A stretch of 62,799 nt of DNA from an uncultured Pseudomonadales bacterium (lineage in GTDB: Bacteria > Patescibacteriota > Microgenomatia > UBA1400 > PJMF01): NCBI GenBank assembly GCA_964457085.1, contig CAYWDM010000004.1, positions 87,319 through 150,117 on the forward strand. The letters run 5' to 3'. The notes beneath the pieces are model-generated. The model was given only the letters and a program-made list of their open reading frames with translations. It was not told the origin of the DNA and did no database searches. This document shows positions 11,238 through 41,522 of the stretch, piece after piece. Within the stretch, counting starts at the first letter, position 1. The number at the start of each line of letters is the position of its first letter. Made by a program: the position numbers and the translations under genes.

Positions 11238-11380
11238 ATGTGCCCTTCAAAAAGATTATATCCCAAACTTACCGGCTCAGTCAGTGCATTTTTAACAATA
11301 CGCTGACAACTTTACAAGTAATGGCACTTACAATTCTTATTTGGTGCTAAAATGCTTTGTATATAAATAGCTTAAGGAGT

Positions 11381-25146: not shown

Positions 25147-25166
25147 ATATTCCTTTGTTGTTGGTA

Positions 25167-28100: not shown

Positions 28101-30629
28101 GCCACGGACACCACTCACACCGTAAGTTGGTACATTGCGCGGAAATAATTGGTTGGCACGAAAACTGGAGTCCTGCAAATTTCCCGAGGCTTCAGTAAAC
28201 ATGAACACGCCTTTTATGGTGGCTGGCATTAAGGCTGTTTGGTAAGCATTTGTGGTTTGCTTACTCCAACCCGAAGCTGCGTTGGTGACATGATCATGAA
28301 TTTCAGAAAGTCCTTGGCTGGTACCAACATAAATTAAATCTGAGTTGTCCTCAGCTAGAGAACCTCGAGTAATCACCTCTAGAGCATCGGGCGCACTAGC
28401 ACTGATTACTGGTGTCAGCTTAGTTAGCTGTGGTGTTGAAGCTTGATCCCAAACTTTTCCTGGAGTTTGGTTTATTTGAGTTGCCTGAATAGTGTCAATA
28501 TTGATCCAACGTTCAGCTTGAGCTTGAGTTTCATTGAGGGCATACATCCGACCACGATTGGTAATAAAAACAGCGTTGTAGTCATCACCGGTATTGTCAG
28601 AATACCCCCATGCGCGCTGATCGGTGGTGTTGATAATAGTCACTGCTGTATCTGTTGCCACACCAATCAGAGTCACACCATTATTTGGGTTAGTGCTGGT
28701 ACTCCCAGATTGCACCGCACCGTGAACGTCATTGACAAAATTATCAGCAATTGCCATGGTCGTAATTGCACTTGATGCGTAGGCATTAGTGGTGTTGCGA
28801 CCACTAATTAGTTGATCAGACTGCACGCGATTAGTGGAGTTATATCTATGCAATCGATCATTGATGAAGTCAAATGCATACAAACCTGTTGAGGCTGAAC
28901 CATTGGTACCAACATAAATCACCCCATTCATGGCGAAGACACTAGAAGGATTATTGTTTAAATCAACACCGAGTGAAAAGCTTGTACCCTGTGAAAACTT
29001 CATCCACATAGTGTTGTCGTTCATGTCGAAGATATAGAGTGCATCAGCTGTAGTAATCAGAATTGCCTTCTTGGGGAAATCATTGCGACCACAGCGATCA
29101 TCCGTCGCCACCACACAGTTGCGCTCATCATGATCTTTGGTTTCGCCATACCAGCTTAGCGCACGACTACTCACCGCCTCGGTCCAGCGACCACCATCTG
29201 TGTCACGAGTGGTGTCATAAATAAAGACATCACTAATACCACTGAGCGTCCGTGACTGCACCATGGCTTGTTTAATTAAGTTGCCGTACAGTGTAACTTT
29301 GCCTCGATACCCAGCTTCACCTATCTGCAATAAATCCTCTGGTGTATCGGTGCCAATACCCACCTGCCCAGTGCCATCAATCACAAATGGAGTTCCATCT
29401 GCAGCTTCGTCATTAACCCGCACCGCGTAGTTCCCTACGCCCGTGGCATTGTGCTGAATCATCAGGGCAGTGTTGGCATTTGCCGTGCCACCATTACTAA
29501 TCGAGACTACTGAACCAGTATTCGAGGCTGCACCAGTACCAGCAGTCATACCAAAACTGGCTACAGAACCAGTGAGATTGGCTGCCGCTGCTGACGTCAC
29601 ATTGAGTAGCGACCCTGAAGTTAAGGCATCAGCACTCAAGGCCAAACCATTGGTGGTTGAAAGCGTGCTCCAATTCCAAGTCTGAGCATAGTTTAAGTTA
29701 TCAATAGTATTGAGGGTGTTAGCACCCATTAATCCTGAGATTCTCCCGCTGGGACCACAGCCTAAATCATTGGTGTTACACAGTGTTTTAATAGTTCCAT
29801 TTTCAACAATTTTAAATTTATTAGCGGTGGTGTCATACCAAAAAGTACCAGTTGTAGCAGTAGGATCACCAGCTCCACCAGTCATGATCAAGGCTTTACC
29901 AGTGCCGATAGTTAAAGTGTCCAAAATCGAAGTGTTGCCTGTGCCAGCTGCATCCAACACTAGATCCTCACTGCCTGCGGTAGTGATATCAGTTGCGGCA
30001 CCAGAAAATGCCAAGCCAGTCGAGCCAATAGTTTTGTTAGTCAAAGTGTCCGCACTACTATTCGTAATTAATGTGCCGGTGGTAGGCAATGTCAGCGTCG
30101 TGGTGTTTGTTGTAGTAAATGTTAGCGGAAAAGCTCCAGTGGTACTAAAAGCATCAGCAAAAGAGATCGTCTTGGCATTTGGAATGGTTAGAGTGCCTGT
30201 CGTGTTAGTGACGGTTAAACCTGCTACTTTCGCAGCATTAAAGGCGTACGGCACCGCCGTAAATCGAATTCGTGGCAACATTTCACCATCACTGTTGTAG
30301 TTGATGCCGAGGTAAATGGTGTCAGTGTTGAAATCAACTGAACCCGGAAGTGCAGTTCCATCGCCTAAATTGGTTTGAAAAATACCATTAGTGACAGTAA
30401 CTGATTTTGATTCAGTCCAAATAGCCACACCCCCACTCGAAACGGTGTACATGCTAAAAACAAAATTGTAGGGACCATCAGCGACATTAGTACCAGTGGT
30501 TTTATTAACAACTTTCCCCTGGAAATTAATCTGTTGATTGATACCTACAGCCGCCAAAACAGAGTTGGCGCAACCAAAAGCCAACACAAAGACCACCGCG
30601 AGTATTAGAGCGATGCGTTTTCCGGACAT
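25167..30629 (-). CDS. Giant (1820-aa) secreted surface protein with LamG/ConA-like domain
   Basis: Start set at MSGKRIALILAVVFVLAFGCANSVLA (signal peptide; ATG at 30627-30629). Thr/Gly/Ala/Asn-rich beta-type sequence. The LamG-like block is ALTFDG ... FTVSLWFKH ... WHFLTAVRQ ... IFLYIDGKLV ... WTGQIDDVTL, at about 27570-28110. Pro/Thr-rich linker near the C-terminus. Confidence 0.85.
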   Translation of the reverse strand: MSGKRIALILAVVFVLAFGCANSVLAAVGINQQINFQGKVVNKTTGTNVADGPYNFVFSMYTVSSGGVAIWTESKSVTVTNGIFQTNLGDGTALPGSVDFNTDTIYLGINYNSDGEMLPRIRFTAVPYAFNAAKVAGLTVTNTTGTLTIPNAKTISFADAFSTTGAFPLTFTTTNTTTLTLPTTGTLITNSSADTLTNKTIGSTGLAFSGAATDITTAGSEDLVLDAAGTGNTSILDTLTIGTGKALIMTGGAGDPTATTGTFWYDTTANKFKIVENGTIKTLCNTNDLGCGPSGRISGLMGANTLNTIDNLNYAQTWNWSTLSTTNGLALSADALTSGSLLNVTSAAAANLTGSVASFGMTAGTGAASNTGSVVSISNGGTANANTALMIQHNATGVGNYAVRVNDEAADGTPFVIDGTGQVGIGTDTPEDLLQIGEAGYRGKVTLYGNLIKQAMVQSRTLSGISDVFIYDTTRDTDGGRWTEAVSSRALSWYGETKDHDERNCVVATDDRCGRNDFPKKAILITTADALYIFDMNDNTMWMKFSQGTSFSLGVDLNNNPSSVFAMNGVIYVGTNGSASTGLYAFDFINDRLHRYNSTNRVQSDQLISGRNTTNAYASSAITTMAIADNFVNDVHGAVQSGSTSTNPNNGVTLIGVATDTAVTIINTTDQRAWGYSDNTGDDYNAVFITNRGRMYALNETQAQAERWINIDTIQATQINQTPGKVWDQASTPQLTKLTPVISASAPDALEVITRGSLAEDNSDLIYVGTSQGLSEIHDHVTNAASGWSKQTTNAYQTALMPATIKGVFMFTEASGNLQDSSFRANQLFPRNVPTYGVSGVRGNALTFDGAADIICSTNAGSTCEVDTDYNSTTTGFTVSLWFKHPTAMSGTDTLISKRHSTTPAAAAGWAIYMNAAGTISFGIDDDTTWNPDDIATTTQTYNDDQWHFLTAVRQNATTGIFLYIDGKLVGSDATLAATATLDGSTILSLGGDCSVGAACATGANFWTGQIDDVTLSMGGATTTDQLTQAQARRLYNDARSTLNRDRITVTNATTFSSNTIGDSAEAWIPNWFANQIVEITSDTGVGQTRRVVSNTATVLTVTPNWTVTPDTTSDFRVVGSTLYGTTNTVTAIGLTDSAFLGESRKLWVGTNDGAGGGGVTLYERTGNNVVTDVYHSNAAKTDDSGTAWNASGDNIVSIGSNAVASVFASSAHQWAESEAQGLQAIYDRLNNNLQTIRGELITDGITGSALEVGQIGGADLAEYYYSSTPLTAGQVVMLDAQGAGWVKPSTTAYQNNLLGVVATAPGMILGPKADNTYPIALVGRVPVQISTENGMPEIGDRLVASSLPGVAMKATKAGQVVGQVLEAPNPANLVACSNGTQWQCGQITMFVNLSQGLGMPMIQLLGAQPESTIYSDPLKTVSETAFGYGLSGAQTSLKYAYDNSTNQIVSIALGSNRQEQILAYLRRQGQVMTEQQKVEGAQVATSDVVADNIYATGEVIAPQMITDLLIAKEIRADKITGLDIVTNKLTSLEGQLASQLASNSARTSSTSAQLLLGQGGLEGMLSGINGKSLNFGSGEVTSGFTVKGALNSQSGLSVGGPADFQANSEFHGNALFRTLVEFVGSAIFKGKVEFSDRVIFNADTAGMAIVKKGVDTVEVKFEQAYSTPPLVNATVNLNEMVSSSADAQLAQSFIEQQLLSGDITYIITSRTDKSFIIKLSKPAPVDIPFSWSAVSVRKMKVFESAPTPTPLLLPTPQPLISPTITPNILPTSGVTPTTATISAVTVATPTPETASASAGVGGFSGGFGNWWRKQLFGVN

Positions 30630-30755
30630 AGATCCTGCATTCACTCTAGCAGAAAACCACCTGTGACAACAGGCAAATAAAAACCGAAAATTAGTCAAGT
30701 TGTAATAGCCCGTTTATGGTTGGACTCTACCTAGCAAATCTTCTACAATCAAAGC

Positions 30756-32513
30756 GTGCGTTTGTATCACTTTTTTGCCATTTTTTTCACTCTATTTGCT
30801 CTCAGCTGTGCTTCACCCATAACTGCCAGCACTGAAGGCTCAGTCATTCTAGAAGTACTGGGCAATGTACCTACTAGACCTCAAGATATTATCCTATCAC
30901 TCACTGCTGATTACCCTGCGTTCAGCACCGTCTCACAGGAACAAGTAATCTCATATACCCTCAACTACAGCTCCATTAGTGATGTTGATACCATTGTCAC
31001 CATAACCACCCGTTACTCTGCTCTTGCACCAGATGGTTCTGGCGAACAGCTGCTTGATTATGTGTCGGGCAGTGCCACTTCGATTAACAGTGGCATTCCA
31101 GGTCTTATTAACCAGCAACAAAAAACTATTTCTTGGCAACAACTCTTGATTCCAGCCCACGCAACCGATCAAAAATTGTTTTTTCAACTCAAATCAAACT
31201 CACGTTTTCCTAACGCTACTCAGGATGTGCTGCTGAATGTTTCGGCAGCAGTAACTAGTCCATTTATTACTCCCAGTGTCATTTTACCAATCAAATATCA
31301 ATACAACCTAACACTGATACCACCAATCCCCACTGCCACCCCAATACCTCCGCCGCAATCTCTTGTCACCAAAACAGTGAACTCAACTACAACCGTACGT
31401 GACCTTGTGGTTACACAGCTCAATAATCGCTCCATCACCCTTGAAGCACTCGCAAATCCAAACTCAAACCTACGAGTCTTGTACGGCACCAGCCCCAAAC
31501 AACTAAAAAGTACAATCAACTCAATTTCTCAAACTGGAATGCATCAGTTTAAAATTTCAAATCTCAAAACAGACACCATTTATTACTTCCAATTCCAATA
31601 CGCAAAACCAGATGGAAGTTATGCAATCCTGGACACATATACGTTTCGTACACCAAATCAAGCTGAAGAACTGGAACTTAATAAGATGTATCAACTATCG
31701 GCACAAAATTCACAAGGCTATATATTCAATGGGAAACTCTTTGCCGCTACATTCTCTCCACCAATAATTGTCTTGCCACAATCAAGCAAGCTCACCTTTA
31801 ATCTGCAACATGATCCCAATATCCCCATGGATATGGCACAAGTTCTGCTCTACAGCCCAGATCTGAAAATCCCCACAATTGCAGCCCGCTCAACTTCAAC
31901 CCAAAGTTCAGCACCATCAACTGCCACCACCGACCTCATAGCTATCAGAAAGCAGCTTGATTTTCCTAATTTAATTGGTAACTACACTTTAAAATCCAGA
32001 CTGCGAACACAAAAAGGGACTATTGCTGAATCCACCATAGCTGAAGTTAAGATCATTAAGCCAATCACCATACGTCACCACCTCACTGGTGCACCAATTA
32101 GCAATGCCAAAGTTTCTATATACAAGTATGATGCCACCACTGACTACTTTTATGCTTACCCTGATCCAAATGAGCCACCTCTTGAGCTATATTCTGAGTC
32201 TAATGGAGGAGTGCCGTTTGTACCTCAAAACGGACGGTTTCGATTGGTTGTTGAACGCGTTCCCTTTTACTTAAAAAACATTGATTTGACTGTTCAACTG
32301 AGCCAAACGATGGTATTGCCAGATATCGAACTACGACCATCTGTTGTTGGTTGGGCAGAACCAATTATTCACATACTCAGCAACCTGCAACCAAACAGAA
32401 ACTACCAAAAACAAAGCTTTCAAGAATGGCTCAATCAATGGTCTGAAGCAATTATTGGTAGGGCACTTTTCCCAATTGAAACACAAGCATTAAGCACTAC
32501 CGAATCATTCTAA
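30756..32513 (+). CDS. Secreted protein with Fn3/PAP-N-like and carboxypeptidase-regulatory-like beta-sandwich domains
   Basis: GTG start with signal peptide (FFAIFFTLFALSCASPITA). LRVLYGTSPKQL ... TDTIYYFQFQY is Fn3-like. LTGAPISNAKVSIYKYD ... SNGGVPFVPQNGRFRLVVE is CarboxypepD_reg-like. Ends in ...TTESF. Confidence 0.6.
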   Translation: MRLYHFFAIFFTLFALSCASPITASTEGSVILEVLGNVPTRPQDIILSLTADYPAFSTVSQEQVISYTLNYSSISDVDTIVTITTRYSALAPDGSGEQLLDYVSGSATSINSGIPGLINQQQKTISWQQLLIPAHATDQKLFFQLKSNSRFPNATQDVLLNVSAAVTSPFITPSVILPIKYQYNLTLIPPIPTATPIPPPQSLVTKTVNSTTTVRDLVVTQLNNRSITLEALANPNSNLRVLYGTSPKQLKSTINSISQTGMHQFKISNLKTDTIYYFQFQYAKPDGSYAILDTYTFRTPNQAEELELNKMYQLSAQNSQGYIFNGKLFAATFSPPIIVLPQSSKLTFNLQHDPNIPMDMAQVLLYSPDLKIPTIAARSTSTQSSAPSTATTDLIAIRKQLDFPNLIGNYTLKSRLRTQKGTIAESTIAEVKIIKPITIRHHLTGAPISNAKVSIYKYDATTDYFYAYPDPNEPPLELYSESNGGVPFVPQNGRFRLVVERVPFYLKNIDLTVQLSQTMVLPDIELRPSVVGWAEPIIHILSNLQPNRNYQKQSFQEWLNQWSEAIIGRALFPIETQALSTTESF

Positions 32514-33604
32514 AAAGTTGCACTCGCCACTGCGGAAATAGTATCACTGTAATCGGCAGCCGCTGGAGTTAGCGGACTGATTTTTGCTTTAACTAAAATT
32601 GAGGTACGCCCACCAACTATTGGTGCATTAGCTGAATTAACAATTGTCTGACTCGTGGTTGAAAGTGCACCAACGGTATCTCCTGAACCCACAAACGGTG
32701 CCACTGCAGTTAGAGGACCACCAGATGTCTGAGCGGTCGTACTAACACGAATTCCATAGCCCTCTGTCTGTCCAGTGAGATTGGCTGAGACTGTGGGGAT
32801 TGTGTATGACTTATTCACGCTTAACAAACCGTTATTGGTACCATGCACATACACAAAAGCTCCACCTTCAGCATTACTTGTCAGATCCAACCAAATTAAG
32901 TTTGTAGCTGTAGTCACTACGCTCGGAGCAAGGTTCCCAAATGCAATGGTGTATGGTGATGCGGTTTCAATATCCGACGATGCGATATCAATGTCATATG
33001 TCAAACTAACTTGTGCCGTGGCCACAGAAGCAGCAGTACTATATTCACTCTCAGTAAATTTGCCATGCATCACTTTTACTTTAACTGAGTAAGTGGTGTT
33101 TGGTTGTAAACCAACTATAAACTCTCCGGTACCACTACCCCAATTTATGTACGTTTGATAATCTTCAATTCCAAGTGTGGATCCAATCGTGTTATCGCTT
33201 TGCACATAATATGTGGTGACCCAACTGTCGGGAGAAATTGCTACTGCATACACTGAATCTGTTGGGTTGCCGCCGGTATTAATCTGCAACAACAACTTGT
33301 TGTAGTAAGAACTAGCATTTGTGAGAGTTGGAGCCAGTGGTACCGCAGCTTGGCGCATAAATTCTAATCCTGAACCCAAAGAATAATTAGAACCATCTAA
33401 CTTCATACCGCTAGTTTCTCCAGTGACTGCATTAATGCTGTAACTAGTGGAATCGGTGTTTCCAACACCACCACTACCGAACGCAAAATCATGCATTTCA
33501 TAGTTAGTACTCGCGGGTAGTGCTAATAAAAACACCAGCGATGTGGTCTTCAGCCAATTAAAAACCGGCTGAAGGGCTCGAGGTTGCCGAAGGCGTTGCA
33601 TCAT
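32510..33604 (-). CDS. Secreted beta-rich protein, distant paralog of 36223/37374, with Fn3-like insert
   Basis: Signal peptide. LQPNTTYSVKVKV is Fn3-like. The C-terminal half shares SYTIPT, TEGYG and AADYSDTISAVASATF-COOH with the tandem paralogs. Confidence 0.6.
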   Translation of the reverse strand: MMQRLRQPRALQPVFNWLKTTSLVFLLALPASTNYEMHDFAFGSGGVGNTDSTSYSINAVTGETSGMKLDGSNYSLGSGLEFMRQAAVPLAPTLTNASSYYNKLLLQINTGGNPTDSVYAVAISPDSWVTTYYVQSDNTIGSTLGIEDYQTYINWGSGTGEFIVGLQPNTTYSVKVKVMHGKFTESEYSTAASVATAQVSLTYDIDIASSDIETASPYTIAFGNLAPSVVTTATNLIWLDLTSNAEGGAFVYVHGTNNGLLSVNKSYTIPTVSANLTGQTEGYGIRVSTTAQTSGGPLTAVAPFVGSGDTVGALSTTSQTIVNSANAPIVGGRTSILVKAKISPLTPAAADYSDTISAVASATF

Positions 33605-34235
33605 ATTTTTTTATGTTAGTAGTAGCTGCATTTAAAGTAATTGATTCAATTAATTTCACCAAGCGATCAGTATCAACTTTGGTGGTGTCAGCCAATCCAG
33701 TAAATGCAATTGTCATCATTTTTCCTGCTGTAATCCAAAACACACTTACTGTTTCCTTATCCTCAAAACGTACAATTCCAGTATATTTTTTAGCTGAGAC
33801 AGATGATTCGCGGTATCCAAAAGATACCTGGCGACGCAGTTGTATTGCGGGGTCATCTGCCATTTTTTGAGTAAACGGTCGCGAAGAAATCACTAGTCTA
33901 CCCGTAGGGTCTTGAGTTAATAAACGAACCGTACAGCTAGTTGCGGGTTCATCAGTCGTTGCTTTTTTACTAGCAAACGGAATCACCACACTGAAACACG
34001 GTCCATCAACAGCATATTCATTTTGAAATGGCTTGCCGTCACCAAAGTCCACAGCCGTTTCGCTAACACTGCCCTTATGTTCATCTAAGAACTCTTGTGA
34101 TCTTGGAGATAGCTCGGTTGAGATTTTAGCTTGTCTCGATTTCCAGCCATACCAGCCACCAACGAGCAACAAAACTACAAGCCCAAGAGTGAAGCCAATC
34201 ATGATCGCTTTTTGATTAGCACTTAATTTTTGCAT
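33558..34235 (-). CDS. N-terminally anchored protein, unknown function
   Basis: Start set at MQKLSANQKAIMIGFTLGLVVLLLVGGWYGW (a single TM helix). It overlaps both neighbouring genes. Ends in ...SPSAGF. Confidence 0.5.
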   Translation of the reverse strand: MQKLSANQKAIMIGFTLGLVVLLLVGGWYGWKSRQAKISTELSPRSQEFLDEHKGSVSETAVDFGDGKPFQNEYAVDGPCFSVVIPFASKKATTDEPATSCTVRLLTQDPTGRLVISSRPFTQKMADDPAIQLRRQVSFGYRESSVSAKKYTGIVRFEDKETVSVFWITAGKMMTIAFTGLADTTKVDTDRLVKLIESITLNAATTNIKKYDATPSATSSPSAGF

Positions 34236-35121
34236 ATCGAACCCACAAAAAGCTGACAATTACCATAATAAGTATCACCAGGGTAAGCAAAATCGGCAAG
34301 TAGACAACCATTCCTTGTTGGGAAAATTGCAGTGCACCAGGTTGAGCCGAACCTGCAATATGCACCACCAGGGGCACTAAGGGAATCGCAAACCCGCGTA
34401 AAGCCACATTACTACTGATAGTGCGCAGATTTTCCGGCATCACCACCACTGAGCCCTCATTAACAATGCCTTCAGCAATACGTCTACCAAAAATATCTGA
34501 AATTACTACCTGACCATGAGGAACTACATGAACATTCCCTTGATTTTCAAATTGTAATTGCATCGATTTTGGCACTGCAAACCAGAAAAAAGGCAATTTG
34601 AATTGCTTTAGATTTATATGAAAGCGTTCGCCTCCAACTTTGTGAATTAACAACACTGAAGATACTGTGGGCAAAACCACTTGTTCTCCTTCACCACCCA
34701 CGCTTATTACCTGGGCTAAAATTGCACCGTAATGTCCCCCTGGAGACAGGTCTTGATTATTCACGATTTCAACACTAATTGTCTTACTTTCATTTGCCTC
34801 TACGGTTAGCTCAGCAACTGGTAATCGTAAGAAATTTGCCAAGGTATATTTGGCTTCATTTTGTGGTTTATCTACAAAGGTAACTTGTCCCTGCATGTCT
34901 AGTTGGCGAATATCTACGGTCGAAAGTGCATACACTTGAGCAGCTGCAGTCTGGTTGGTAATCGTAATATCTCGAGTAACACTACTGTCAGTTGCGGTAA
35001 TTGTTACAAATTGAAATGCAGGCTCAACCATAATACCTGCAGCAAAAACAGGTCGGTTTAAAACCACAGAAAAGACCACTCCCACAACCAGGATTAACCA
35101 AATTCTCTGAAAAAAACGCAT
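34216..35121 (-). CDS. Membrane-anchored two-domain beta-sandwich protein (DUF916/DUF3324-like architecture)
   Basis: Signal peptide, two beta-rich domains (the second has NQGNVHVVPHGQVVI), a C-terminal TM helix (LPILLTLVILIMVIVSFLWV) and a basic tail RYAKIKC. Paralog of 35128-36189. Confidence 0.6.
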   Translation of the reverse strand: MRFFQRIWLILVVGVVFSVVLNRPVFAAGIMVEPAFQFVTITATDSSVTRDITITNQTAAAQVYALSTVDIRQLDMQGQVTFVDKPQNEAKYTLANFLRLPVAELTVEANESKTISVEIVNNQDLSPGGHYGAILAQVISVGGEGEQVVLPTVSSVLLIHKVGGERFHINLKQFKLPFFWFAVPKSMQLQFENQGNVHVVPHGQVVISDIFGRRIAEGIVNEGSVVVMPENLRTISSNVALRGFAIPLVPLVVHIAGSAQPGALQFSQQGMVVYLPILLTLVILIMVIVSFLWVRYAKIKC

Positions 35122-35127
35122 ACTTAT

Positions 35128-36189
35128 TTATTTTGAACGGCGAACTGCTTTAGTAATAGTACCAAAGATGCTAAAGAGACCATATCCAAGTAGCAACAGT
35201 ACCACAGCTCCAATACCAAGCAACTTCCAAGGTATCACCCAAAAACTAACCTGTGATTCAATGGGTACGTCGCGTTCACCATTGTCGTACACCATCAACA
35301 AATGAGCAGTATATTTACCAAATCTAATTTTACTCAGCTTGCTGACATCGTATTTCAAGCCAAATAGTTGACTGCCGTCCTCATTTTTAACATCTTTACC
35401 ATCAATAGTTTTGGCAGCGTATGTTGGAAAGCCATCATCCCAAACAACTTGATACTCTCTCTGTGAACCTGGCAACACCATTCTGGTGTTTGGATTAACC
35501 GGCAAAATTGCCACGTCCCGCTTCCCTTCACCGTCAATAAAGATCGTGCCGCTTGGAGGCACATGTACATTGCCACCATTTTTTACAGTAACAGTGAATG
35601 TCTCTGGTAAAAACTCAACCATTGGTGCTGTGACCGAGAAGTTTGTGACCTCAAGTTGCCGCTTCGCATTTGGCGAGTTAATAGTTGTCAACACCAAGAT
35701 CGCTGGCATCGCATTGACTGTTGTTTCAGTGTACTGTGTTTCACTTGCTCTGGTTACGATCACGCTGTAGTAGTGAGAGAGTTCAGCATATTCCGGTGGA
35801 CTAAATGTGACTGGAATGGTTTTCCATTCACCTGCTTCTACAGTAAATTCAGTTTCCGCAAATTTGAGCCACTGCAAATACTCTTCATCACCTTGGGGTA
35901 AAACCAATCTTGGTTTGCCGCCAGTTTCGTCAGCAGTGAAAGTAGCTAAGAGCAATTTTACTCGTTCAGCCATCACCCCATTATTACGAATTTTAATCTC
36001 GGTAGTAATTGATTTACCTAAATCGACTTCAAGGTTGAGGGTCACTGGAGACACTGTCGCGTTAAAAGGCTGCTGCTTTAGCACTTCTGGCTCTGCAGCA
36101 TTTACCAATTGAATTGCCGACAGTAAGAAGGCTACAACCAACAAACCTTGAGTAATTATTTTACGAAACTGTAATACGTTCACGTTCAA
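35128..36189 (-). CDS. Membrane-anchored two-domain beta-sandwich protein (DUF916/DUF3324-like architecture)
   Basis: Signal peptide, two beta-rich domains (NGGNVHVPPSGTIFI), a C-terminal TM helix (LLGIGAVVLLLLGYGLFSIFG) and a basic tail KAVRRSK. Confidence 0.6.
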   Translation of the reverse strand: MNVNVLQFRKIITQGLLVVAFLLSAIQLVNAAEPEVLKQQPFNATVSPVTLNLEVDLGKSITTEIKIRNNGVMAERVKLLLATFTADETGGKPRLVLPQGDEEYLQWLKFAETEFTVEAGEWKTIPVTFSPPEYAELSHYYSVIVTRASETQYTETTVNAMPAILVLTTINSPNAKRQLEVTNFSVTAPMVEFLPETFTVTVKNGGNVHVPPSGTIFIDGEGKRDVAILPVNPNTRMVLPGSQREYQVVWDDGFPTYAAKTIDGKDVKNEDGSQLFGLKYDVSKLSKIRFGKYTAHLLMVYDNGERDVPIESQVSFWVIPWKLLGIGAVVLLLLGYGLFSIFGTITKAVRRSK

Positions 36190-36222
36190 CTCCGATCCTG
36201 GGCAGGATATATAGTCTGGGTA

Positions 36223-37257
36223 TTAAAATATGCCCGCACCGACCACAGTGATGGTATCAGCATAATCTGAAGCTGCTTTTGTAACTCCAGAGATTGCAAC
36301 TCTTGGAATTAAGGTAATAATATCTCCAGAAGTTACACCATTAGCACTCGCAATTGGCTGATAGGTAGTACTTAATGTGCCGCCTGCAGCAGTTGTTAAG
36401 CCATTATATTCTGGATCAATAGTCACTGTGCCGCCACCACCAGCATCCGTGGTTAAATCAGTATCAAGCACGTATCCTTCGGTGCCAAAGGCAATTGTTG
36501 AAGGAGCAGCATCAATGGTTCCAGCTGTTGGAATTGTGTAAGAAACGTTGGTTGAAGTCAGACCGGCATTGGCATCTTTAGCCCATGCAATCCATCCTGA
36601 ACCTGCATTGGTGGTAATAGTAATGGCATTACCAGCACCTGAACTAATCGCACTACTTGAAAGTGTTCCTAGAGCAGCGGTTGTAGATCCCAGTGCAAAT
36701 GTAAATGAAGGTGGGACTGCAGCACTAACTGTGATTTGATCAGCAGTAATCGTAGGTACAGAGATTTCTTTAGTATCGTTGATTACAGGCACTGCATCTG
36801 TGGTAAATAGCGTATGTAATTGGGTGTTAGAAGCAGCTGGGTTCAAAATTAAACCAGTGCCAGTAATAAAGAAACCATAAGTTGTCGACGCTGTTAAGTT
36901 GGTGACGGGGAACGAGATGGTATTACCGGTGACATTACTTGCTGTGGCTATGCCAGGCATAGCAGTCACTCCAGCTGGCAAACCAGCAGTAGAAACCGTG
37001 TAATTTCCTGCGGTTGTGGTGAAATTTGTGGTACTCACCCATTCAGAATCCAAAGTGATCTTGAAAAGTGTCTCAGTGAATGTGACAGACGAAGTAGTGA
37101 AAACAACCAGCACACTTCCAGGTGCCTGACCTGCCTGCATTCTACTCGCCCTCATATATACGTTGCCTGCTGCTTGAGCTGCATCAGCTCGTTGGGGCAA
37201 TAAAAAAACCGCACACAAAATCACTAATAAAAGGGCAGAAAGTTTTTTCATAGTCAT
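36223..37257 (-). CDS. Secreted Thr/Ala/Gly-rich beta protein, tandem paralog B (candidate fibre/surface-layer subunit)
   Basis: 344 aa. Signal peptide, then AAQAAGNVYMRASRMQAGQAPGS. The mature part is Cys-free and ends in ASDYADTITVVGAGIF-COOH. Confidence 0.7.
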   Translation of the reverse strand: MTMKKLSALLLVILCAVFLLPQRADAAQAAGNVYMRASRMQAGQAPGSVLVVFTTSSVTFTETLFKITLDSEWVSTTNFTTTAGNYTVSTAGLPAGVTAMPGIATASNVTGNTISFPVTNLTASTTYGFFITGTGLILNPAASNTQLHTLFTTDAVPVINDTKEISVPTITADQITVSAAVPPSFTFALGSTTAALGTLSSSAISSGAGNAITITTNAGSGWIAWAKDANAGLTSTNVSYTIPTAGTIDAAPSTIAFGTEGYVLDTDLTTDAGGGGTVTIDPEYNGLTTAAGGTLSTTYQPIASANGVTSGDIITLIPRVAISGVTKAASDYADTITVVGAGIF

Positions 37258-37373
37258 TTTTTTACTTAGTTAATAGTCTCTTAAAACCTCAAGGTCTGTC
37301 AATATGTCGAAGTAGATCAATTTATATTTTAGTGCTGGTTACCTATACTTAATAAGTTTTTACAAACACATCA

Positions 37374-38405
37374 CTAAAAAACACCTGCCGCTACTACTGT
37401 CAATGTATCTGCATAATCAGATGCCGCTTCTGTTAGATTTGAAATTGCTACTCTAGGTACCAATGTAACAACATCAGAATTTGCGGCTCCCGTAGAAGTT
37501 GCAAATGCTTGAAATGTAGTACTCAGCGTACCACCCGCAGCAGTTGTGAGTCCGTTATATTCGCCTGCTATCGAAACGACACCGCCACCTGCTGCATCCG
37601 TAGTTAAATCTGCATCAAGCACATATCCTTCGGTGCCAAAGGCAATAGTTGAAGGAGCTGCATCGATCGAGCCTGCGGTCGGAATTGTGTAAGTAACATT
37701 AGTTGAGGTTAAACCTGCGTTAGCACTTTTTACCCACGCTGTCCAACCACTGCCAGCATTTGTGGAAATCGTGACAGTGTTACCGGCACCAGAACTAATA
37801 GCACTCGCTGTGAGTGTCCCCAATGCTGCAGTTGTTGATCCCAGTGCGATAGAAAAAGTTGGTAGTACAGTTGCAGTCACTGAGATTTGATCTGCAGTAA
37901 TTGTAGGGACGTTTACATCTTTAGTATCATTGGTCGTCGGCACTGCATTAGTGGTAAATAAGGTGTGTACTTGTGTAGTGGAAGCCGCTGGATTGAGAAG
38001 CAGGCCTGTTCCAGTAATATAGAAGCCATAGGTTGTTGACACCCCAAGTGCAGAAATCGGAAAAGAAATGGTATTACCGGTCACGTTGGTGGCAGTAGCC
38101 ACACCAGGCATGGCAGTCACGCCTGCAGGCAATCCAGCTACTGAAATAGTGTAGTTTGCTGGTGTTGTAGAGAAATTCGTAGTCGATACCCACTCTGAAT
38201 CAAGTGTCACTTTAAACAAGGTTTCAGCAAAAACCACAGACGAAGTGGTAAGCACCACCAACACACTGCCTGGAGCCTGACCAGCTTGCATCCGATCTGC
38301 CCTCATATACGAGTTACCTGCTGCCTGAGCTGCAAATACTTGCGTGGTACTTCCAAGAGCTAAGCAGACAAAAACTAACAGTAACAACACACGAAACTTA
38401 TGCAT
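37374..38405 (-). CDS. Secreted Thr/Ala/Gly-rich beta protein, tandem paralog A (candidate fibre/surface-layer subunit)
   Basis: The start was moved to MHKFRVLLLLVFVCLALGSTTQVFA (ATG at 38403-38405), because the 34-aa upstream extension of the tracked ORF has no counterpart in paralog B. Ends in ASDYADTLTVVAAGVF-COOH. Confidence 0.7.
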   Translation of the reverse strand: MHKFRVLLLLVFVCLALGSTTQVFAAQAAGNSYMRADRMQAGQAPGSVLVVLTTSSVVFAETLFKVTLDSEWVSTTNFSTTPANYTISVAGLPAGVTAMPGVATATNVTGNTISFPISALGVSTTYGFYITGTGLLLNPAASTTQVHTLFTTNAVPTTNDTKDVNVPTITADQISVTATVLPTFSIALGSTTAALGTLTASAISSGAGNTVTISTNAGSGWTAWVKSANAGLTSTNVTYTIPTAGSIDAAPSTIAFGTEGYVLDADLTTDAAGGGVVSIAGEYNGLTTAAGGTLSTTFQAFATSTGAANSDVVTLVPRVAISNLTEAASDYADTLTVVAAGVF

Positions 38406-38563
38406 AAAAAAAGTGATCTGGGCTATAAATATATCTATATAATACTGAGTTACATCCAACCAAGTGTCAATATATCTGAATAGATCAATTTTGATCTTAT
38501 TGATCAATCAGCCTTTTTTAGATTATTAATTCCCCTACAACTTGATTGCTGTACAATGTTGTA

Positions 38564-39973
38564 ATGCCCGCACTTGCTGCCCGAACCGAGGCAAAATTGC
38601 CTCAAGCTCCAAGTTTATTGTCGATGATTGGTCCGAGTTTTATCTTACTCGGTCTTGGACTAGGTAGTGGTGAGTTGCTGCTCTGGCCATACCTAGCTGC
38701 CCACTATGGCTTAGGTGTGATGTGGGCTGCAGCCGTCGGCATTACTTTTCAATACTTTCTCAATCTCGAAATCGAACGATATACACTCTCGACTGGCGAA
38801 AGTGTCTTCGTCGGTCTTACTAGAAGTCATGCTCGATTTGCTCCAATCTGGTTTTTATTATCTACAATAATTCCCTGGATTTGGCCGGGGATAATCTCGA
38901 TTTCAGCATTAATCATCTCGACTTCTCTACATCTAGGATCATTTCAACCTGTTGCCATCGTACTACTACTCAGCATTGCGGTGATTCTTACTAGCAGCTC
39001 GACTGTGTATCAAACAATGGAACGCTGGCAAAAAATTTCTTTAGGCATAGCAGTACCTTTTCTCATACTACTAACCTTTTCTATTGCCAAACCGGATGAT
39101 TGGCTGGCACTTTGGAACGGTCTGCGTGGCATTGGCGATGGATATTCTTGGCTACCACCGAAATTACCCCTATTCACATTACTTGGAGCACTTGCTTATG
39201 CTGGTGCAGGTGGGAATCTTAACCTAGCACAATCCTTTTATATTAAGGATAAAGGATACGGCATGGGACAACATGCAAATTGCTCAACTAGCCAAGTGAG
39301 AGGGCATCATCCCATCACTAAGATTCCACGAGTTGAGGGCTATTTTTTTAAGATTACCGAGTCATCCTTGCTAAGGTTCAAACAATGGTGGTGGCGTCTC
39401 ACCATTGAGCACAGCATAGTATTTTGGATAACAGGACTGGTGACTATGTTGCTTTTAGCCACCTTAGCCTTTGCTACCACAAAACAATATCAAGGTGTGC
39501 TGCCTAGCGGTACACAATTTCTATTTGTAGAAGCCAATCTAATCGCTGCTGGTACCCATCAATTTGTAGGAATTCTTTTCCTTAGCATAGTTGCCTTGAT
39601 GCTTTTCTCCACTCAACTTTCAATCGCTGATTCGACCAGTCGAATTTTAGCTGAGAACCTAGTGCTACTAAATAAAAAAGTCTTTAATCCAAAACAATTA
39701 CCTAAATGGTATAAACTTGCAGTTTGGGGCCAGGTGTTAGCTGGCTGCAGCATTTTACTATTTAAAATCACCGAGCCATTTATGCTAGTAACCTTGAGTG
39801 CGATTCTCAATGCTCTGTCTATGCTGGCCTATTCAATCATGTTGCTACGACTCAACACCACACAATTACCACCGCCTTTAAGACCAAGTTTAATACGTCG
39901 ACTCATCATCTTAGGATGCATCATTTTTCTCTCGATTTTTGCCATTCTCACTGTTTGGCAATTTTTAAACTAG
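38564..39973 (+). CDS. Nramp-related (APC-fold) membrane transporter-like protein
   Basis: About 470 aa with 11-12 TM helices. The N-terminus MIGPSFILLGLGLGSGELLLWPYLAAHYG parallels the Nramp TM1 region, but LGSGE replaces the DPGN motif. Start set at the ATG at 38564. Confidence 0.5.
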   Translation: MPALAARTEAKLPQAPSLLSMIGPSFILLGLGLGSGELLLWPYLAAHYGLGVMWAAAVGITFQYFLNLEIERYTLSTGESVFVGLTRSHARFAPIWFLLSTIIPWIWPGIISISALIISTSLHLGSFQPVAIVLLLSIAVILTSSSTVYQTMERWQKISLGIAVPFLILLTFSIAKPDDWLALWNGLRGIGDGYSWLPPKLPLFTLLGALAYAGAGGNLNLAQSFYIKDKGYGMGQHANCSTSQVRGHHPITKIPRVEGYFFKITESSLLRFKQWWWRLTIEHSIVFWITGLVTMLLLATLAFATTKQYQGVLPSGTQFLFVEANLIAAGTHQFVGILFLSIVALMLFSTQLSIADSTSRILAENLVLLNKKVFNPKQLPKWYKLAVWGQVLAGCSILLFKITEPFMLVTLSAILNALSMLAYSIMLLRLNTTQLPPPLRPSLIRRLIILGCIIFLSIFAILTVWQFLN

Positions 39974-40010: not shown

Positions 40011-41246
40011 TCATCCATGTGCTAATTGATAGTGTTTATCCCCAAAAAAACCCGTGACCTCTGGATTAATTCGTGCTTGTTTAAGCAGAATACCTGAAGT
40101 GGCGGTAAATAATCCATACCGCTCATTGATGGCGGTTAAAGCTGTTTCAACTTTCTCTGTTTGTTGCCAACTTTCCCATAGCTCTGGCATGGTTTGACTC
40201 ATTGGTGTCAGCATTCCTAAATACACTCCAAACTTAATCACTCTAAAGTCGCGTCTCCATACCTTATACAAATTGTAATAAATCAGTTCAAACATTTCTT
40301 TGGTGTGCACAGTGTGATGAGACAGCGTCAGGTGCTTGCTCCAAGATTGTCCTTCACCCCAAAGTGAGACTGCCACAAACCTCCCTGCCAACTTCATTTT
40401 TCTAACCTTAGCTATGCACTCCAATACTAAGTTGTATAAAGTAGCCTTAATCACAGCCTCATCGTCACAAGCCTTCCAACCAGTAATTGAGCGACTGACA
40501 CTTTTTGGCAACTCAGCACTTTTATCTCCCCTGGCTAACATCGCTGGCTCCAAACCTTGACCAATTTTCCGCAGTTCCTGTGCCCAAAAAGGTCCCACCA
40601 CCTGTTGTAAGTCGCCGTCAGAAATAAAATTCAGTTGATACGGCACTCTCACTCCAAGCTTTTGCAGTTGCCTCTCGAGATTCCTACCAACCCCACAAAC
40701 ATCAGCAAAACTGGTTCTCGCCAGCAATACAGCTTCATCTTCAGCTTTAGTCCAGACTACCGAGCCCTTGGGAGAAGTCTCGCCAGTCATCTTAGCAATC
40801 AGCCGATTAGCACCAATTCCCACATTACAACTAACCCATTCACCCAACTCGCCATAAAGACGCTGTTGCAATAATTTACCCAGAGTAACTGGATTTGGGT
40901 GCAGGTTTCTAATTGGGTTCCACAGAATAAATGCCTCGTCTAAAGAAAAAACTTCTACATCTGGAGATACTGATCTAAAAACTTGATACAACCGCTTGGT
41001 AGCAGCCAAATAGGCACCAAAACGTGCTGGAGCCACTACTAACTTGGGACAGATATCCAGTGCCTCTTTCAGTCTAGTTCCGGTTTTAATCCCCAGTTTT
41101 TTTGCCTCCTTAGAGGTGGCAATCAAACAAGTGCGTCCTTCTTCCTTCACAATGCCAACTGGTTTCCCTCTTAAACTAGGAATTTCCTGCTGCAGCAAAG
41201 TGGCAAAATATGCATTCACATCAATATGTAGCCAGATTTCATTCAC
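40011..41246 (-). CDS. Y-family DNA polymerase (DinB/UmuC-like)
   Basis: GTG start preceded by GGAGG with a 6-nt spacer. IWLHIDVNAYFAT ... VFSLDEAF are the Y-family palm motifs. The tracked upstream extension overlaps the preceding gene. Confidence 0.85.
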   Translation of the reverse strand: MNEIWLHIDVNAYFATLLQQEIPSLRGKPVGIVKEEGRTCLIATSKEAKKLGIKTGTRLKEALDICPKLVVAPARFGAYLAATKRLYQVFRSVSPDVEVFSLDEAFILWNPIRNLHPNPVTLGKLLQQRLYGELGEWVSCNVGIGANRLIAKMTGETSPKGSVVWTKAEDEAVLLARTSFADVCGVGRNLERQLQKLGVRVPYQLNFISDGDLQQVVGPFWAQELRKIGQGLEPAMLARGDKSAELPKSVSRSITGWKACDDEAVIKATLYNLVLECIAKVRKMKLAGRFVAVSLWGEGQSWSKHLTLSHHTVHTKEMFELIYYNLYKVWRRDFRVIKFGVYLGMLTPMSQTMPELWESWQQTEKVETALTAINERYGLFTATSGILLKQARINPEVTGFFGDKHYQLAHG

Positions 41247-41484
41247 AGTACACCTCCAGTAGCCGCCATAAATCACTTTCGCGATTAAAATCGAGTCTAT
41301 ATACTGATGTGCCACTGCGGACACTATAGAAACGGTGCTTGGTCACACCATTTTTTTCATCAATAGCCAAAGTTACTTCTTCAACAACCCTGATTTGATT
41401 ACGCCACCTAAAACGCCTAGGTACAAACCCTCTTGTAGAAAAAGTACCCTGCACTTCAACAGGCTCATTAATCTGAGTAAACAT
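41239..41484 (-). CDS. 81-aa protein of unknown function coupled to the Y-family polymerase
   Basis: Its stop overlaps the polymerase GTG start (GTGAATGA). The basic, Trp-containing pattern RRFRWRNQ ... LWRLLEVY recalls small ORFs that accompany Y-family polymerases (DUF6504-like, from memory). Confidence 0.55.
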   Translation of the reverse strand: MFTQINEPVEVQGTFSTRGFVPRRFRWRNQIRVVEEVTLAIDEKNGVTKHRFYSVRSGTSVYRLDFNRESDLWRLLEVYCE

Positions 41485-41522
41485 AATACGTATTTCTTAA
41501 AATCTTTCTAACAGTGCTTGAG

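Follow-up and report, generated by a model that had tools for sequence, protein, structure and literature searches.

The six genes on the minus strand at 32510-38405 of the window (the whole stretch of DNA analysed, 62,799 nucleotides) are quite probably a divergent CPR Pam pilus locus, i.e. they would specify a Sec-dependent, usher-less, chaperone-assisted fibre assembled by donor-strand exchange at the cytoplasmic membrane of monoderm-like Patescibacteria. The most likely product of the cluster is a thin filament on the surface of an ultrasmall CPR bacterium, put together with membrane-tethered chaperones and without an outer-membrane pore; the host probably belongs to Microgenomatia and is Woesebacteria-like. 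Pam pili, first described for CPR bacteria in a 2026 preprint, are assembled without an usher, by chaperones anchored in the membrane and through donor-strand exchange (Troman et al., bioRxiv 10.64898/2026.03.03.709456), and NCBIfam models exist for them (NF058578/79/81). Taking into account the homology of the chaperones, the pilins and the PamT-like protein, and the conservation of the gene set, the locus should be regarded as a pilus of the Pam kind and not, as suggested in the original prediction, as an undescribed system. The genes of the locus and its neighbours are the following:

37374-38405, minus strand: A1, major pilin-like subunit, 343 aa (ORF, motifs, AF2, hhalign)
36223-37257, minus strand: A2, second major pilin-like subunit, 344 aa (A1 identity, motifs)
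35128-36189, minus strand: B1, membrane-anchored PapD/WxLIP-like chaperone, 353 aa (phmmer, hydropathy)
34216-35121, minus strand: B2, second membrane-anchored chaperone, 301 aa (AF2, Foldseek, family HMM)
33558-34235, minus strand: C, N-terminally TM-anchored protein, ~200 aa (hydropathy, hhalign)
32510-33604, minus strand: A3, PamT-like minor/tip pilin, 364 aa (NCBIfam PamT, hhalign)
30756-32513, plus strand: p585, convergent secreted FnIII-like protein (homologues in 13 loci)
25167-30698, minus strand: giant secreted protein, conserved downstream neighbour, 1843 aa (homologues in related loci)
24376-25200, minus strand: p274, small TM protein (weak LytR_C match, PF13399)

All six co-directional ORFs of the locus were confirmed as predicted, in the order A-A-B1-B2-C-A3. 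The tiny gaps and overlaps ascribed to them were found at most junctions (33 nt between A2 and B1, 6 nt between B1 and B2, overlaps of 20 nt between B2 and C and of 47 nt between C and A3), but not between A1 and A2, which are separated by 116 nt; no stable hairpin was found in this gap. Usher, sortase and secretion ATPase genes were absent among the Pfam-scanned genes of the window and no LPXTG motif was present in the six proteins, in agreement with the original prediction and as in Pam systems, where usher, sortase and ATPase are all absent.

Pilin-like subunits

In A1 the signal peptide is followed by an N-terminal beta-sandwich domain, which a conserved linker (residues ~169-184, ITADQISVTATVLPTF) joins to the C-terminal pilin domain; the protein ends in ...ASDYADTLTVVAAGVF. 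Its AF2 model (pLDDT 92) has two beta domains, and FimH and PapG were among the weak structural matches of the subunit fold. A2 shares 75-78% identity with A1 over the full length (BLASTP) and is evidently a recent paralogue, whereas the similarity of A1 and A2 to A3 (33-35% identity, E~1e-11, BLASTP) is confined to the C-terminal ~160 aa. A3 is thus a predicted third subunit having only the C-terminal domain in common with the other two; this domain matched the A-type profile at 99.3% in hhalign.

The motifs quoted originally were found exactly in all three subunits: (S/T)YTIPT at positions 238, 239 and 266 of A1, A2 and A3, TEGY(V/G) at 258, 259 and 280, and the tail ...DY(A/S)DT(I/L)(T/S)xVxxxxF-COOH, which A3 shares with A1 and A2. 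The subunits had been described as Thr/Ala/Gly/Ser-rich, and the measured content of these residues was 50% in A1 and A2 and 43% in A3. They had also been described as Cys-free, which is correct for A3 and, since the sole Cys of A1 and of A2 sits in the signal peptide, for the mature forms of these two, but not for their precursors. PamA and PamB, in contrast, carry paired cysteines (bioRxiv 10.64898/2026.03.03.709456).

A1 had 388 homologues, all without annotation, and the named ones were from Woesebacteria/Patescibacteria. The most conserved segments of the A-type proteins are the linker, residues 208-237 and the C-terminal strand; Pam pilins are likewise best conserved in the linker and the C-terminal strand (bioRxiv 10.64898/2026.03.03.709456). 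In Ca. Mycosynbacter amalyticus the Pam set comprises the pilins PamA/B/E/T, the chaperones PamC/D and PamR, and cryo-EM of PamA and PamB revealed polymerisation by donor-strand exchange (bioRxiv 10.64898/2026.03.03.709456).

For comparison, matches to the NCBIfam models PamT, PamR and Pam_pilin_C served to recognise canonical pam operons; in the canonical locus L007, for example, the scores were 271.5 (cut-off 240), 317.6 (cut-off 300) and ~150 (cut-off 55), respectively. The window pilins are too diverged for Pam_pilin_C, which matched neither A1, A2 and A3 nor any other A-type protein tried, and when the A-type and the canonical pilin families were searched against each other with ordinary HMMs, nothing was found in either direction. 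Only profile-profile alignment (hhalign) of 82 A-type proteins with 126 canonical Pam pilins connected the two (89.2%, E 2.2e-6, 208 columns). The alignment covers residues 116-339 of A1 and pairs DQIxVTATVxPTF with AxQIxLTGTMPESLVF, TNAxxGW with STNAGSGY, GTEGY with GxSQFG, and AAxDYTDTLTVV with AGTYTTTLTYI, i.e. the linker, TNAGSG(W/Y) and the C-terminal motif are shared. This one comparison, the motifs and synteny suggest that the A-type proteins are remote homologues of Pam pilins, which supports their originally proposed role as fibre subunits. Like Pam pilins, they are two-domain proteins exported by Sec in a CPR host, the linker between the domains is conserved, and the C-terminal strand ends in an aromatic residue.

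A3 contains an S-x-N-Y repeat segment (27-81), an FnIII-like insert (~90-195; weak Pfam fn3 match), which distinguishes it from the Pam proteins, and the C-terminal pilin domain. Its N-terminal segment is PamT-like: the NCBIfam PamT model matched it with an E value of 1e-4 (orthologues down to 2.4e-7), and the N-terminus of the A3 family aligned with PamT at 96.1% (E 3.7e-9, hhalign).

Membrane-anchored proteins

B1 has a signal peptide, two beta domains, the sequence NGGNVHVPPSG and, at its C-terminus, a TM helix followed by a basic tail; the motif N-x-GNVHV-x-P-x-G is at position 204 in B1 and 193 in B2. Their paralogy, proposed earlier, was borne out by BLASTP (26.6% identity over 192 aa, E 1e-9). 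The proposed topology was likewise recovered: the AF2 model of B2 (pLDDT 91) has an N-terminal signal helix, beta-sandwich domains at 30-161 and 169-274 and a C-terminal helix at 277-300, and hydropathy indicated a C-terminal TM in both proteins. In Foldseek searches with B2 the top matches were CfaA (E 5e-10; TM-score 0.63, normalised to the target length), WxLIP (9i1y/9i25, E 1e-9), YadV, CsuC, FimC and Caf1M; the chaperone-specific fold ranked above generic Ig folds.

The B-family HMM matched the L007 chaperone over its full length (E=1.5e-48) and the chaperone in all 52 further canonical metagenome operons from which that gene was recovered; B1 itself matched the L007 chaperone with an E value of 9.9e-25 (phmmer). 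B1 and B2 are, by their sequences, homologues of the canonical pam operon chaperone, which also has a PapD fold on a C-terminal TM helix, and B1-type orthologues occur in nearly all related loci. The PapD-like fold of the B2 model and this homology argue for the chaperone role suggested originally.

C has a single N-terminal TM by hydropathy, as predicted. Its homologues are ~200-aa genes located upstream of A3 in Saccharibacteria-type loci and downstream of B2 in Moranbacteria-type loci (hhalign 98.7-99.9% across both types). C had no Pfam, NCBIfam or PDB match, and its family was absent from the canonical pam loci searched; comparison of the loci marks it as a fifth conserved, uncharacterised family of these clusters.

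Conservation and genomic context

The A family comprised 974 clusters (50% identity) at E<=1e-3 among 1.84 billion representative proteins, and about 80 further loci contain the gene set, which places the locus far beyond chance. Among 80 GTDB loci (Levybacteria, Microgenomates, Moranbacteria, Saccharibacteria and Paceibacterota), dozens have the A, A3, B1, B2 and C genes side by side, the set being conserved in different genomes.

No PamR homologue was found within the window, but in some Saccharimonadia PamR is linked to clusters of the window type. A PamR-like gene adjoins the cluster in 12 GTDB loci and in L003, directly preceding it in L003 and in 11 of the 12, whereas in L070 it lies downstream. 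The cluster is found at the site of the canonical operon, next to the u347(-) gene, in four loci (L067, L078, L086, L087). There are also PamR-like paralogues in a non-pilus setting (AlaRS / FtsA-like / RuvX / YceG), thus PamR-likeness alone is not diagnostic.

The giant protein had 77 homologous ORFs in related loci, typically right behind the pilus genes (E 0 to 1e-70 among the best 25 of the 77); searches of Pfam, NCBIfam and the PDB gave no match to it. In the Pam paper, where a giant fibre-like protein also adjoins the pilus genes, its counterpart is probably the 'tail fibre-like protein' node. Homologues of p274 were found in 22 loci, and in related loci they come after the giant gene. 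The p585 gene is a conserved neighbour of window-type clusters, and in 5 loci its homologues possess an N-terminal A-type domain with linker and C-terminal TM helices, which makes them candidate terminators or anchors; window p585 lacks both features.

Within the Pam pili the window locus is a distinct variant, with pilins missed by NCBIfam, no PamR, Cys-free mature pilins and the N-anchored C family. Its gene order also differs from the canonical T-P-P-B-R, and it is not located beside the ATP synthase operon, no ATP-synthase neighbourhood being found around it.

Alternative explanations and proposed assembly

Firmicutes WxL/Csc clusters combine a WxLIP (DUF916-DUF3324-TM) with WxL proteins (Hassan et al. 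2023, PMC10599100; PDB 9i1y, 9i25), and the WxLIP is predicted to complete the beta-sandwich of its partner with a donated strand (PMC10599100). A Csc/WxL-like complex that does not polymerise, in which WxLIP-like B proteins permanently hold single subunits by strand complementation, is an improbable reading of the window locus, even though B1 and B2 share the WxLIP architecture (signal peptide, two Ig-like domains, C-terminal TM) as well as a monoderm envelope and non-covalent attachment. The relation is weak but reproducible in both sequence and fold: PF06030 (DUF916) matched 27 of 50 B-family members weakly, B2 had weak PF06030 and PF06280 matches, and EfmWxLIP1 was found in the PDB by the B-family profile (E=7e-4) and by fold (E 1e-9). 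The Csc/WxL likeness proposed originally therefore has some basis in the B proteins, but none in the subunits, which have neither a Pfam WxL match nor a W-x-L motif. The host is a CPR bacterium and not one of the Firmicutes, an LPXTG component is missing, and linker and acceptor domain of the subunits are arranged as in polymerising pilins, the subunits being remotely homologous to pilins seen polymerising by cryo-EM. The linker, needless in a static complex, is among their most conserved segments, and both the tip-like A3 and the association with PamR are consistent with an ordered fibre.

Weak Fn3-like/DUF916 matches of the B proteins, and the giant protein and p585 as signs of a general surface-protein island, could also suggest secreted adhesins or envelope proteins that are independent of one another (S-layer-like or associated with the cell wall), with the B proteins as scaffolds or wall-binding proteins. 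This is less probable still, in view of the ranking of the chaperone fold, the tight co-occurrence of five families across CPR classes and the strong chaperone homology to an experimentally defined pilus operon type. A misrecognised sortase-type, TasA/camelysin-type or type IV-type fibre might be considered given that CPR bacteria are monoderm-like and commonly have type IV pili. It was effectively refuted by domain searches of the six proteins and their neighbours, which found no LPXTG, sortase, prepilin-type N-terminus or pilus ATPase and no TasA/camelysin match (nor PapD_N) at E<=1 in the six proteins, and no TasA/camelysin match among the neighbours; we give it hardly any credence.

The preferred Pam-type pilus resembles chaperone-usher pili (Pap/Fim; alternate CFA/I with CfaA; archaic Csu with CsuC) in the two-domain chaperone fold, in pilins ending in a conserved aromatic-terminated C-terminal strand and, presumably, in donor-strand complementation followed by exchange. 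In contrast to those systems it has no outer membrane or usher, its chaperones are membrane-anchored instead of soluble and lack Pfam PapD_N/C matches, its pilins are two-domain, and the donor strand would be an internal linker, by homology, instead of an N-terminal extension.

With their signal peptides and TM anchors, all six proteins would be exported or inserted by Sec, and B1 and B2 would stay tethered via the C-terminal helix. In line with their fold and homology, and by analogy with PapD, WxLIP and PamC/D, they may bind newly exported subunits, whose C-terminal Ig-like domain is incomplete and would take up a beta strand of the chaperone. The fibre would begin, at its distal tip, with PamT-like A3, and A1 and A2 would next polymerise head-to-tail, the incoming linker (~169-184) displacing the chaperone strand beside the C-terminal strand (~335-343) of the previous subunit. 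Donor-strand or edge-strand pairing of the C-terminal tail had been considered originally; from Pam pilin homology, the donated strand is probably the inter-domain linker (A1 ~169-184), and the tail would more likely form the final strand of the acceptor domain and pair with the donor strand. Two chaperones and two subunit classes would mirror the predicted pairings PamC:PamB and PamD:PamA/T (bioRxiv 10.64898/2026.03.03.709456). Without PamR, the fibre could be held by C, by p585 or by a chaperone-capped last subunit. The pilus would probably serve an episymbiont for contact with its host or prey, and the window locus would be part of a large, divergent Pam branch that current annotation models miss.

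Gene content of the locus

The six minus-strand genes of the original prediction were all found as open reading frames, and every sequence motif quoted there was recovered:

37374-38405, minus strand: A1, major pilin-like subunit; ORF confirmed
36223-37257, minus strand: A2, major pilin-like subunit; ORF confirmed
35128-36189, minus strand: B1, membrane-anchored two-domain chaperone-like protein; ORF confirmed
34216-35121, minus strand: B2, paralogue of B1; ORF confirmed
33558-34235, minus strand: C, N-anchored protein of ~200 aa; ORF confirmed
32510-33604, minus strand: A3, PamT-like minor or tip subunit; ORF confirmed

The successive distances between A1, A2, B1 and B2 are 116, 33 and 6 nt, followed by overlaps of 20 nt (B2/C) and 47 nt (C/A3). 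Neither scans for promoters and terminators nor folding of the spacer between A1 and A2 gave a signal over background. A1 and A2 are 75-78% identical, and the homology of A3 to them is confined to its C-terminal ~160 residues (33-35% identity, E~1e-11). The subunits had been described as cysteine-free, which holds for mature A1 and A2 but not for their precursors, whose sole cysteine lies in the signal peptide. B1 and B2 are mutual paralogues as proposed (26.6% identity across 192 residues), and their topology (signal peptide, two beta domains, C-terminal TM helix) is supported by hydropathy and an AF2 model. Hydropathy likewise gave C a single N-terminal anchor. The proposed extent of the locus, 32510-38405, covers the six genes, but the conserved locus is bigger and takes in neighbours.

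The remaining genes of the window are ordinary housekeeping genes, and no tRNA gene was found in it. Just upstream of the pilus locus, a Y-family DNA polymerase gene (IMS domains; 40011-42104, minus strand) adjoins that of an S24 LexA-like peptidase; the two make up an SOS-type pair, here encoded by a CPR bacterium. Near the gene of a radical SAM/SPASM protein (13596-14681, minus strand) lies that of a pre-ATP-grasp domain protein (11357-12781, plus strand), and the segment 11357-14681 could be a peptide-modification cluster. Divergently from A1 lies the gene of a 475-aa polytopic membrane protein (38546-39973, plus strand) that has no Pfam match; because none of the related loci contained a homologue, it was placed outside the conserved module.

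Predicted chaperones and pilin-like subunits

Pam pili are known from Ca. Mycosynbacter amalyticus, a parasitic member of the Saccharimonadia for which cryo-EM structures of the pilins PamA and PamB were reported in a June 2026 bioRxiv preprint (10.64898/2026.03.03.709456). In these pili, which are made without an usher, subunits are joined by donor-strand exchange, the linker of one subunit occupying the groove of the next; PamC and PamD, encoded in the same operon, are chaperones of PapD/FimC type that carry a TM helix at the C-terminus, PamT is a single-domain tip pilin, and PamR is an RbmA-like, TM-anchored terminator (10.64898/2026.03.03.709456). Homologues were reported from Saccharimonadia and, by language-model search only, from Microgenomatia (10.64898/2026.03.03.709456). 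A Pam pilin has a signal peptide, a beta-sandwich at its N-terminus, a linker strand and, at its C-terminus, a truncated Ig-like domain whose groove is open. The conserved surroundings of Pam operons comprise the ATP synthase operon and a giant protein that resembles a tail fibre. The NCBIfam Pam models, by which we define canonical Pam proteins, are dated June 2026. In the M. amalyticus genome, where PamD is QHN43271.1, PamB and its neighbour QHN43268.1 come after PamR. According to the main text of the preprint, PamC is WP_260763277.1 and is encoded last in the pam operon, and Supplementary Table 1 lists pamC as QHN42421.1, a 119 kDa protein encoded beside type IV pilus genes (10.64898/2026.03.03.709456). 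QHN43268.1 (36.5 kDa, encoded beside pamB) suits a chaperone better, so the table entry is probably a slip.

The AF2 model of B2, made with 50 homologues in the alignment, had a pLDDT of 91 and a pTM of 0.77. Its best matches in a Foldseek comparison with the PDB were pilus chaperones, led by CfaA (E 5e-10, TM-score on target length 0.63) and including YadV, CsuC, CupB2, EcpB, FimC, Caf1M, DraB and SafB. The suggestion that B1 and B2 are two-domain Ig-like chaperones thus agrees with the predicted PapD/FimC-type fold of B2, and AF2, Foldseek and HMM results together point to the same kind of chaperone, held by a C-terminal TM helix, that is found in Pam. The model also matched Enterococcus faecium WxLIP, alone and WxL-bound (9i1y and 9i25, E 1e-9 to 2e-9; a literature search returned no paper for 9i25), and the B-family profile found EfmWxLIP1 among PDB sequences (E 7e-4). 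Weak DUF916 (PF06030) matches occurred in 27 of the 50 B-family members, B2 itself scoring a sub-threshold 20.3 bits against PF06030 (WxLIP_PGBD; gathering score 27.3). Pfam matches of B1 and B2 to fn3_5 were also sub-threshold, and there was no Pfam match in the B proteins to DUF3324, which WxLIP combines with DUF916 and a C-terminal TM helix. A strand of the B proteins at ~152-161 ends in a near-invariant K161-x-GG.

No Pam model of NCBIfam matched any of 50 B-type relatives. The B-family HMM of the window matched the 334-aa protein of a canonical operon (locus L007) over its full length (E=1.5e-48; single-sequence matches 1e-24 with B1 and 4e-12 with B2), and it matched the chaperone in 52/52 further canonical metagenome operons where the gene was recovered. 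B1 and B2 are therefore unambiguous homologues of the Pam chaperones.

For A1, the AF2 model (pLDDT 92) showed two beta domains joined by a segment, residues 170-183, that is unpaired in the monomer. A1 also has a signal peptide, and its linker is highly conserved. Foldseek returned low-TM multi-Ig matches only (integrin, MSCRAMMs, FimH, PapG) from a PDB set lacking PamA and PamB (25PZ/25QA). Nothing useful was obtained when A1, B2, the A1 and C-family profiles, the giant protein encoded next to the cluster and its neighbour p585 were compared with PDB chain sequences.

The canonical pilin model NF058581 (CPR_Pam_pilin_C, cut-off 55 bits) had no match at E<=1 to A1, A2 or A3, nor to 40 A1 homologues or the A-type (A1/A2 family) proteins of Saccharibacteria; an NCBIfam scan of 40 A-type relatives returned no Pam model at all. 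Plain HMM searches between A-type and canonical pilins gave nothing in either direction, yet the two have obvious motifs in common. Profile-profile alignment was weak with three canonical pilins (hhalign, 18%, E 1e-3) and became convincing when 126 of them were aligned with 82 A-type sequences (89.2%, E 2.2e-6, 208 columns). The aligned span, A1 116-339 with canonical 140-376, pairs the linkers (DQIxVTATVxPTF with AxQIxLTGTMPESLVF), TNAxxGW with STNAGSGY, GTEGY with GxSQFG, and the C-terminal strands (AAxDYTDTLTVV with AGTYTTTLTYI). By these alignments, the A-type subunits are remote homologues of Pam pilins.

In 82 diverse A-type pilins conservation peaks in the C-terminal strand, the linker and residues 208-237, the pattern reported for Pam pilins (10.64898/2026.03.03.709456). 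Judged by this homology, it is probably the internal linker, at A1 ~169-184, that supplies the donor strand. The conserved tail noted in the original prediction would then form the final strand of the acceptor domain, at ~335-341, and be the counterpart of strand F in chaperone-usher pilins.

In A3, residues 28-85 matched the PamT equivalog model only weakly (NF058579, 21.8 bits, cut-off 240). The A3 family aligned with PamT along an N-terminal S-x-N-Y repeat segment (hhalign, 96.1%, E 3.7e-9), and its C-terminal domain aligned with the A-type domain (99.3%). Since an FnIII-like insert separates these two parts, A3 is a different protein from PamT. Elsewhere, a complete A-type pilin unit was seen at the C-terminus of four proteins with long N-terminal extensions, P0247 (1113 aa), P0250 (936 aa), P0251 (1641 aa) and P0263 (784 aa), which may be adhesin-pilin fusions.

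Related loci, PamR and conserved neighbours

Searches with A1 returned 388 homologues at E<=1e-3, all unannotated and without a Pfam domain; those with named hosts belonged to Candidatus Woesebacteria or the 'Patescibacteria group'. The 66 homologues of B2 extended to Andersenbacteria and Moranbacteria. Like Pam, the locus is thus encoded in a CPR/Patescibacteria genome, probably of Microgenomatia. Clustered at 50% identity, the A-type pilin family comprises 974 clusters.

One genome per GTDB species was queried with chaperone motifs, giving 238 relatives, and the best 80 loci were analysed alongside six metagenome-assembly loci. The 80 came from Levybacteria, Microgenomates, Moranbacteria, Saccharibacteria/Saccharimonadia, Paceibacterota and unnamed Patescibacteria. 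Conserved co-occurrence of the gene set, proposed at the outset as a check, was found in two arrangements. One is that of the window, A, B1, B2, C, A3; the other, in Saccharibacteria and Moranbacteria, is [PamR], C-like, A3, A(-A), B1(-B1), B2(-C-like), giant protein. The ~200-aa N-anchored genes of all three positions form one family (hhalign 98.7-99.9%), and canonical pam loci yielded no member of it. TPA_asm MAG records bearing this CPR-specific cluster are often titled 'uncultured Pseudomonadales/Gammaproteobacteria/Bdellovibrionales bacterium' (L009, L010, L012-L016, L018, L020, L024, L027, L032, L040, L042, L044, L046, L047, L050, L052, L055, L065, L071, L074, L081, L085); given the gene content, these titles look like wrong taxonomy.

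Of the best 80 GTDB loci, 12 have a PamR-like gene next to the cluster, as does L003, where the protein encoded immediately upstream matched NCBIfam PamR at 3e-62; tblastn found no PamR in the window. A homologue of the L003 protein, P0228, passed the PamR equivalog cut-off (317.6 bits, cut-off 300). On its contig (L007) the ATP synthase operon is adjoined by PamT (271.5, cut-off 240), two CPR_Pam_pilin_C pilins, the 334-aa chaperone homologue and PamR. The 52 further canonical operons had the order ATP synthase, u345(-), T, P, P, B, R, u1200, in which u345(-) and u1200 are flanking genes, T is PamT, P a pilin, B the chaperone and R PamR. The u347(-) gene, which flanks canonical operons, also neighbours the cluster in four loci (L067, L078, L086, L087). 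Canonical operons adjoin ATP synthase; no ATP synthase gene was found among the Pfam-scanned genes of the window.

Three PamR-like paralogues lie away from pilins (L167 8987-10021, L168 9001-10110, L169 9001-10056), in the conserved context AlaRS / PamR-like / FtsA-like / ~585-aa / RuvX / YceG, so the PamR family is not exclusive to pilus operons. With the canonical PamR profile, six cluster-adjacent copies scored 250-294 bits and the paralogues 209-241 bits.

Three neighbours of the six genes recur in related loci:

25167-30698, minus strand: giant secreted protein of 1843 aa
24376-25200: p274, small TM protein
30756-32513, convergent: p585

The giant protein, without a match in Pfam, NCBIfam or the PDB, has 77 homologous ORFs of up to 2400 aa, typically immediately 3' of the clusters. 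As they lie directly downstream in most related loci, it probably belongs to the functional module. p274 has homologues behind the giant gene in 22 loci, and p585 is present again in 13 window-type loci. In five loci (L009 10503-12659; L016 3394-5844; L018 2020-4506; L040 2109-4838; L074 2840-5632) the p585 homologue has a signal peptide, an A-type N-terminal domain and linker, a p585-like body and C-terminal TM helices, the layout that would be expected of a pilus chain terminator or anchor. The p585 of the window has neither the A-type part nor the TM helices.

Relation to known surface systems

Taken together, the gene content, predicted folds, homologies and synteny make it quite likely that the six-gene locus encodes a divergent Pam-type pilus. 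The subunits would be exported by Sec and captured by the membrane-tethered B1 and B2; A3 would occupy the tip, A1 and A2 would polymerise by linker-strand exchange, and the fibre may serve in host contact. This is in essence the architecture originally proposed, and it is that reported for Pam pili (10.64898/2026.03.03.709456). The claim of an undescribed system did not survive, the kind being known from one preprint and the NCBIfam models; a search of the literature turned up no second account of pili of this kind.

The window differs from Pam in having no PamR, no paired cysteines and, among the scanned genes, no ATP-synthase context, and its branch in having pilins that evade the curated models and a fifth conserved protein, C. 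Usher, sortase and secretion ATPase, already noted as missing in the original prediction, were not found when the six proteins and 30 neighbours were scanned with Pfam and NCBIfam. Chaperone-usher pili have an usher in the outer membrane and a soluble, periplasmic chaperone of the PapD family, whereas the scanned genes of the window gave no usher and no PapD_N/C Pfam match, and the predicted chaperone fold is membrane-anchored. Sortase-dependent pili are marked by a pilin-specific sortase together with an LPXTG sorting signal; the subunits have an F at the C-terminus and neither LPXTG nor a TM segment there, and no sortase was found in the scanned genes. Sortase pili, type IV pili, TasA-like fibres and true WxL clusters were rejected, their defining features being absent.

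The main rival, a static WxL-like surface complex, draws on the one observation that the chaperone has WxLIP affinity, and is disfavoured by the pilin homology of the subunits, by their conserved linker and by the absence of WxL domains. The predicted WxL resemblance of the subunits was not borne out: Pfam WxL had no match, and W-x-L, a motif that WxL domains carry twice, does not occur in A1, A2, A3 or C. A more far-reaching reading appears rather unlikely to us: that A/A3/B1/B2/C form a separate, widespread sister system of canonical Pam, that the tethered chaperones are a sequence-level missing link from Firmicute WxLIP/WxL to donor-strand-exchange pili, and that C, or the p585 variants fused to pilin-N, linker and TM, are a new assembly or termination factor replacing usher and PamR. 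If it were true, chaperone/strand complementation would be an ancient monoderm invention and not a Gram-negative speciality. Conversely, should PamB and QHN43268.1 of M. amalyticus fall into the A-type and B2-type families, the window would be a plain member of the Pam family.

The CPR/Patescibacteria form a very large radiation of episymbionts, most of which are uncultured. We know of no described non-type-IV pilus of CPR other than Pam, defined in one Saccharimonadia isolate. Read as a divergent Pam-type pilus, the locus adds no new assembly principle; the kind of system is known, and what is new is a large divergent branch. On this reading, a much more diverged version of Pam exists in Microgenomatia-like genomes and several CPR classes; it shares the chaperone family, its pilins are invisible to current NCBIfam models, it has a conserved fifth component of its own, and the window copy lacks a recognisable terminator. 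The locus yields profiles and motifs for annotating ~1000 protein clusters that have no annotation, defined pairs of subunit and chaperone whose structures can be predicted, and a testable evolutionary link between Firmicute WxLIP proteins and pilus chaperones.
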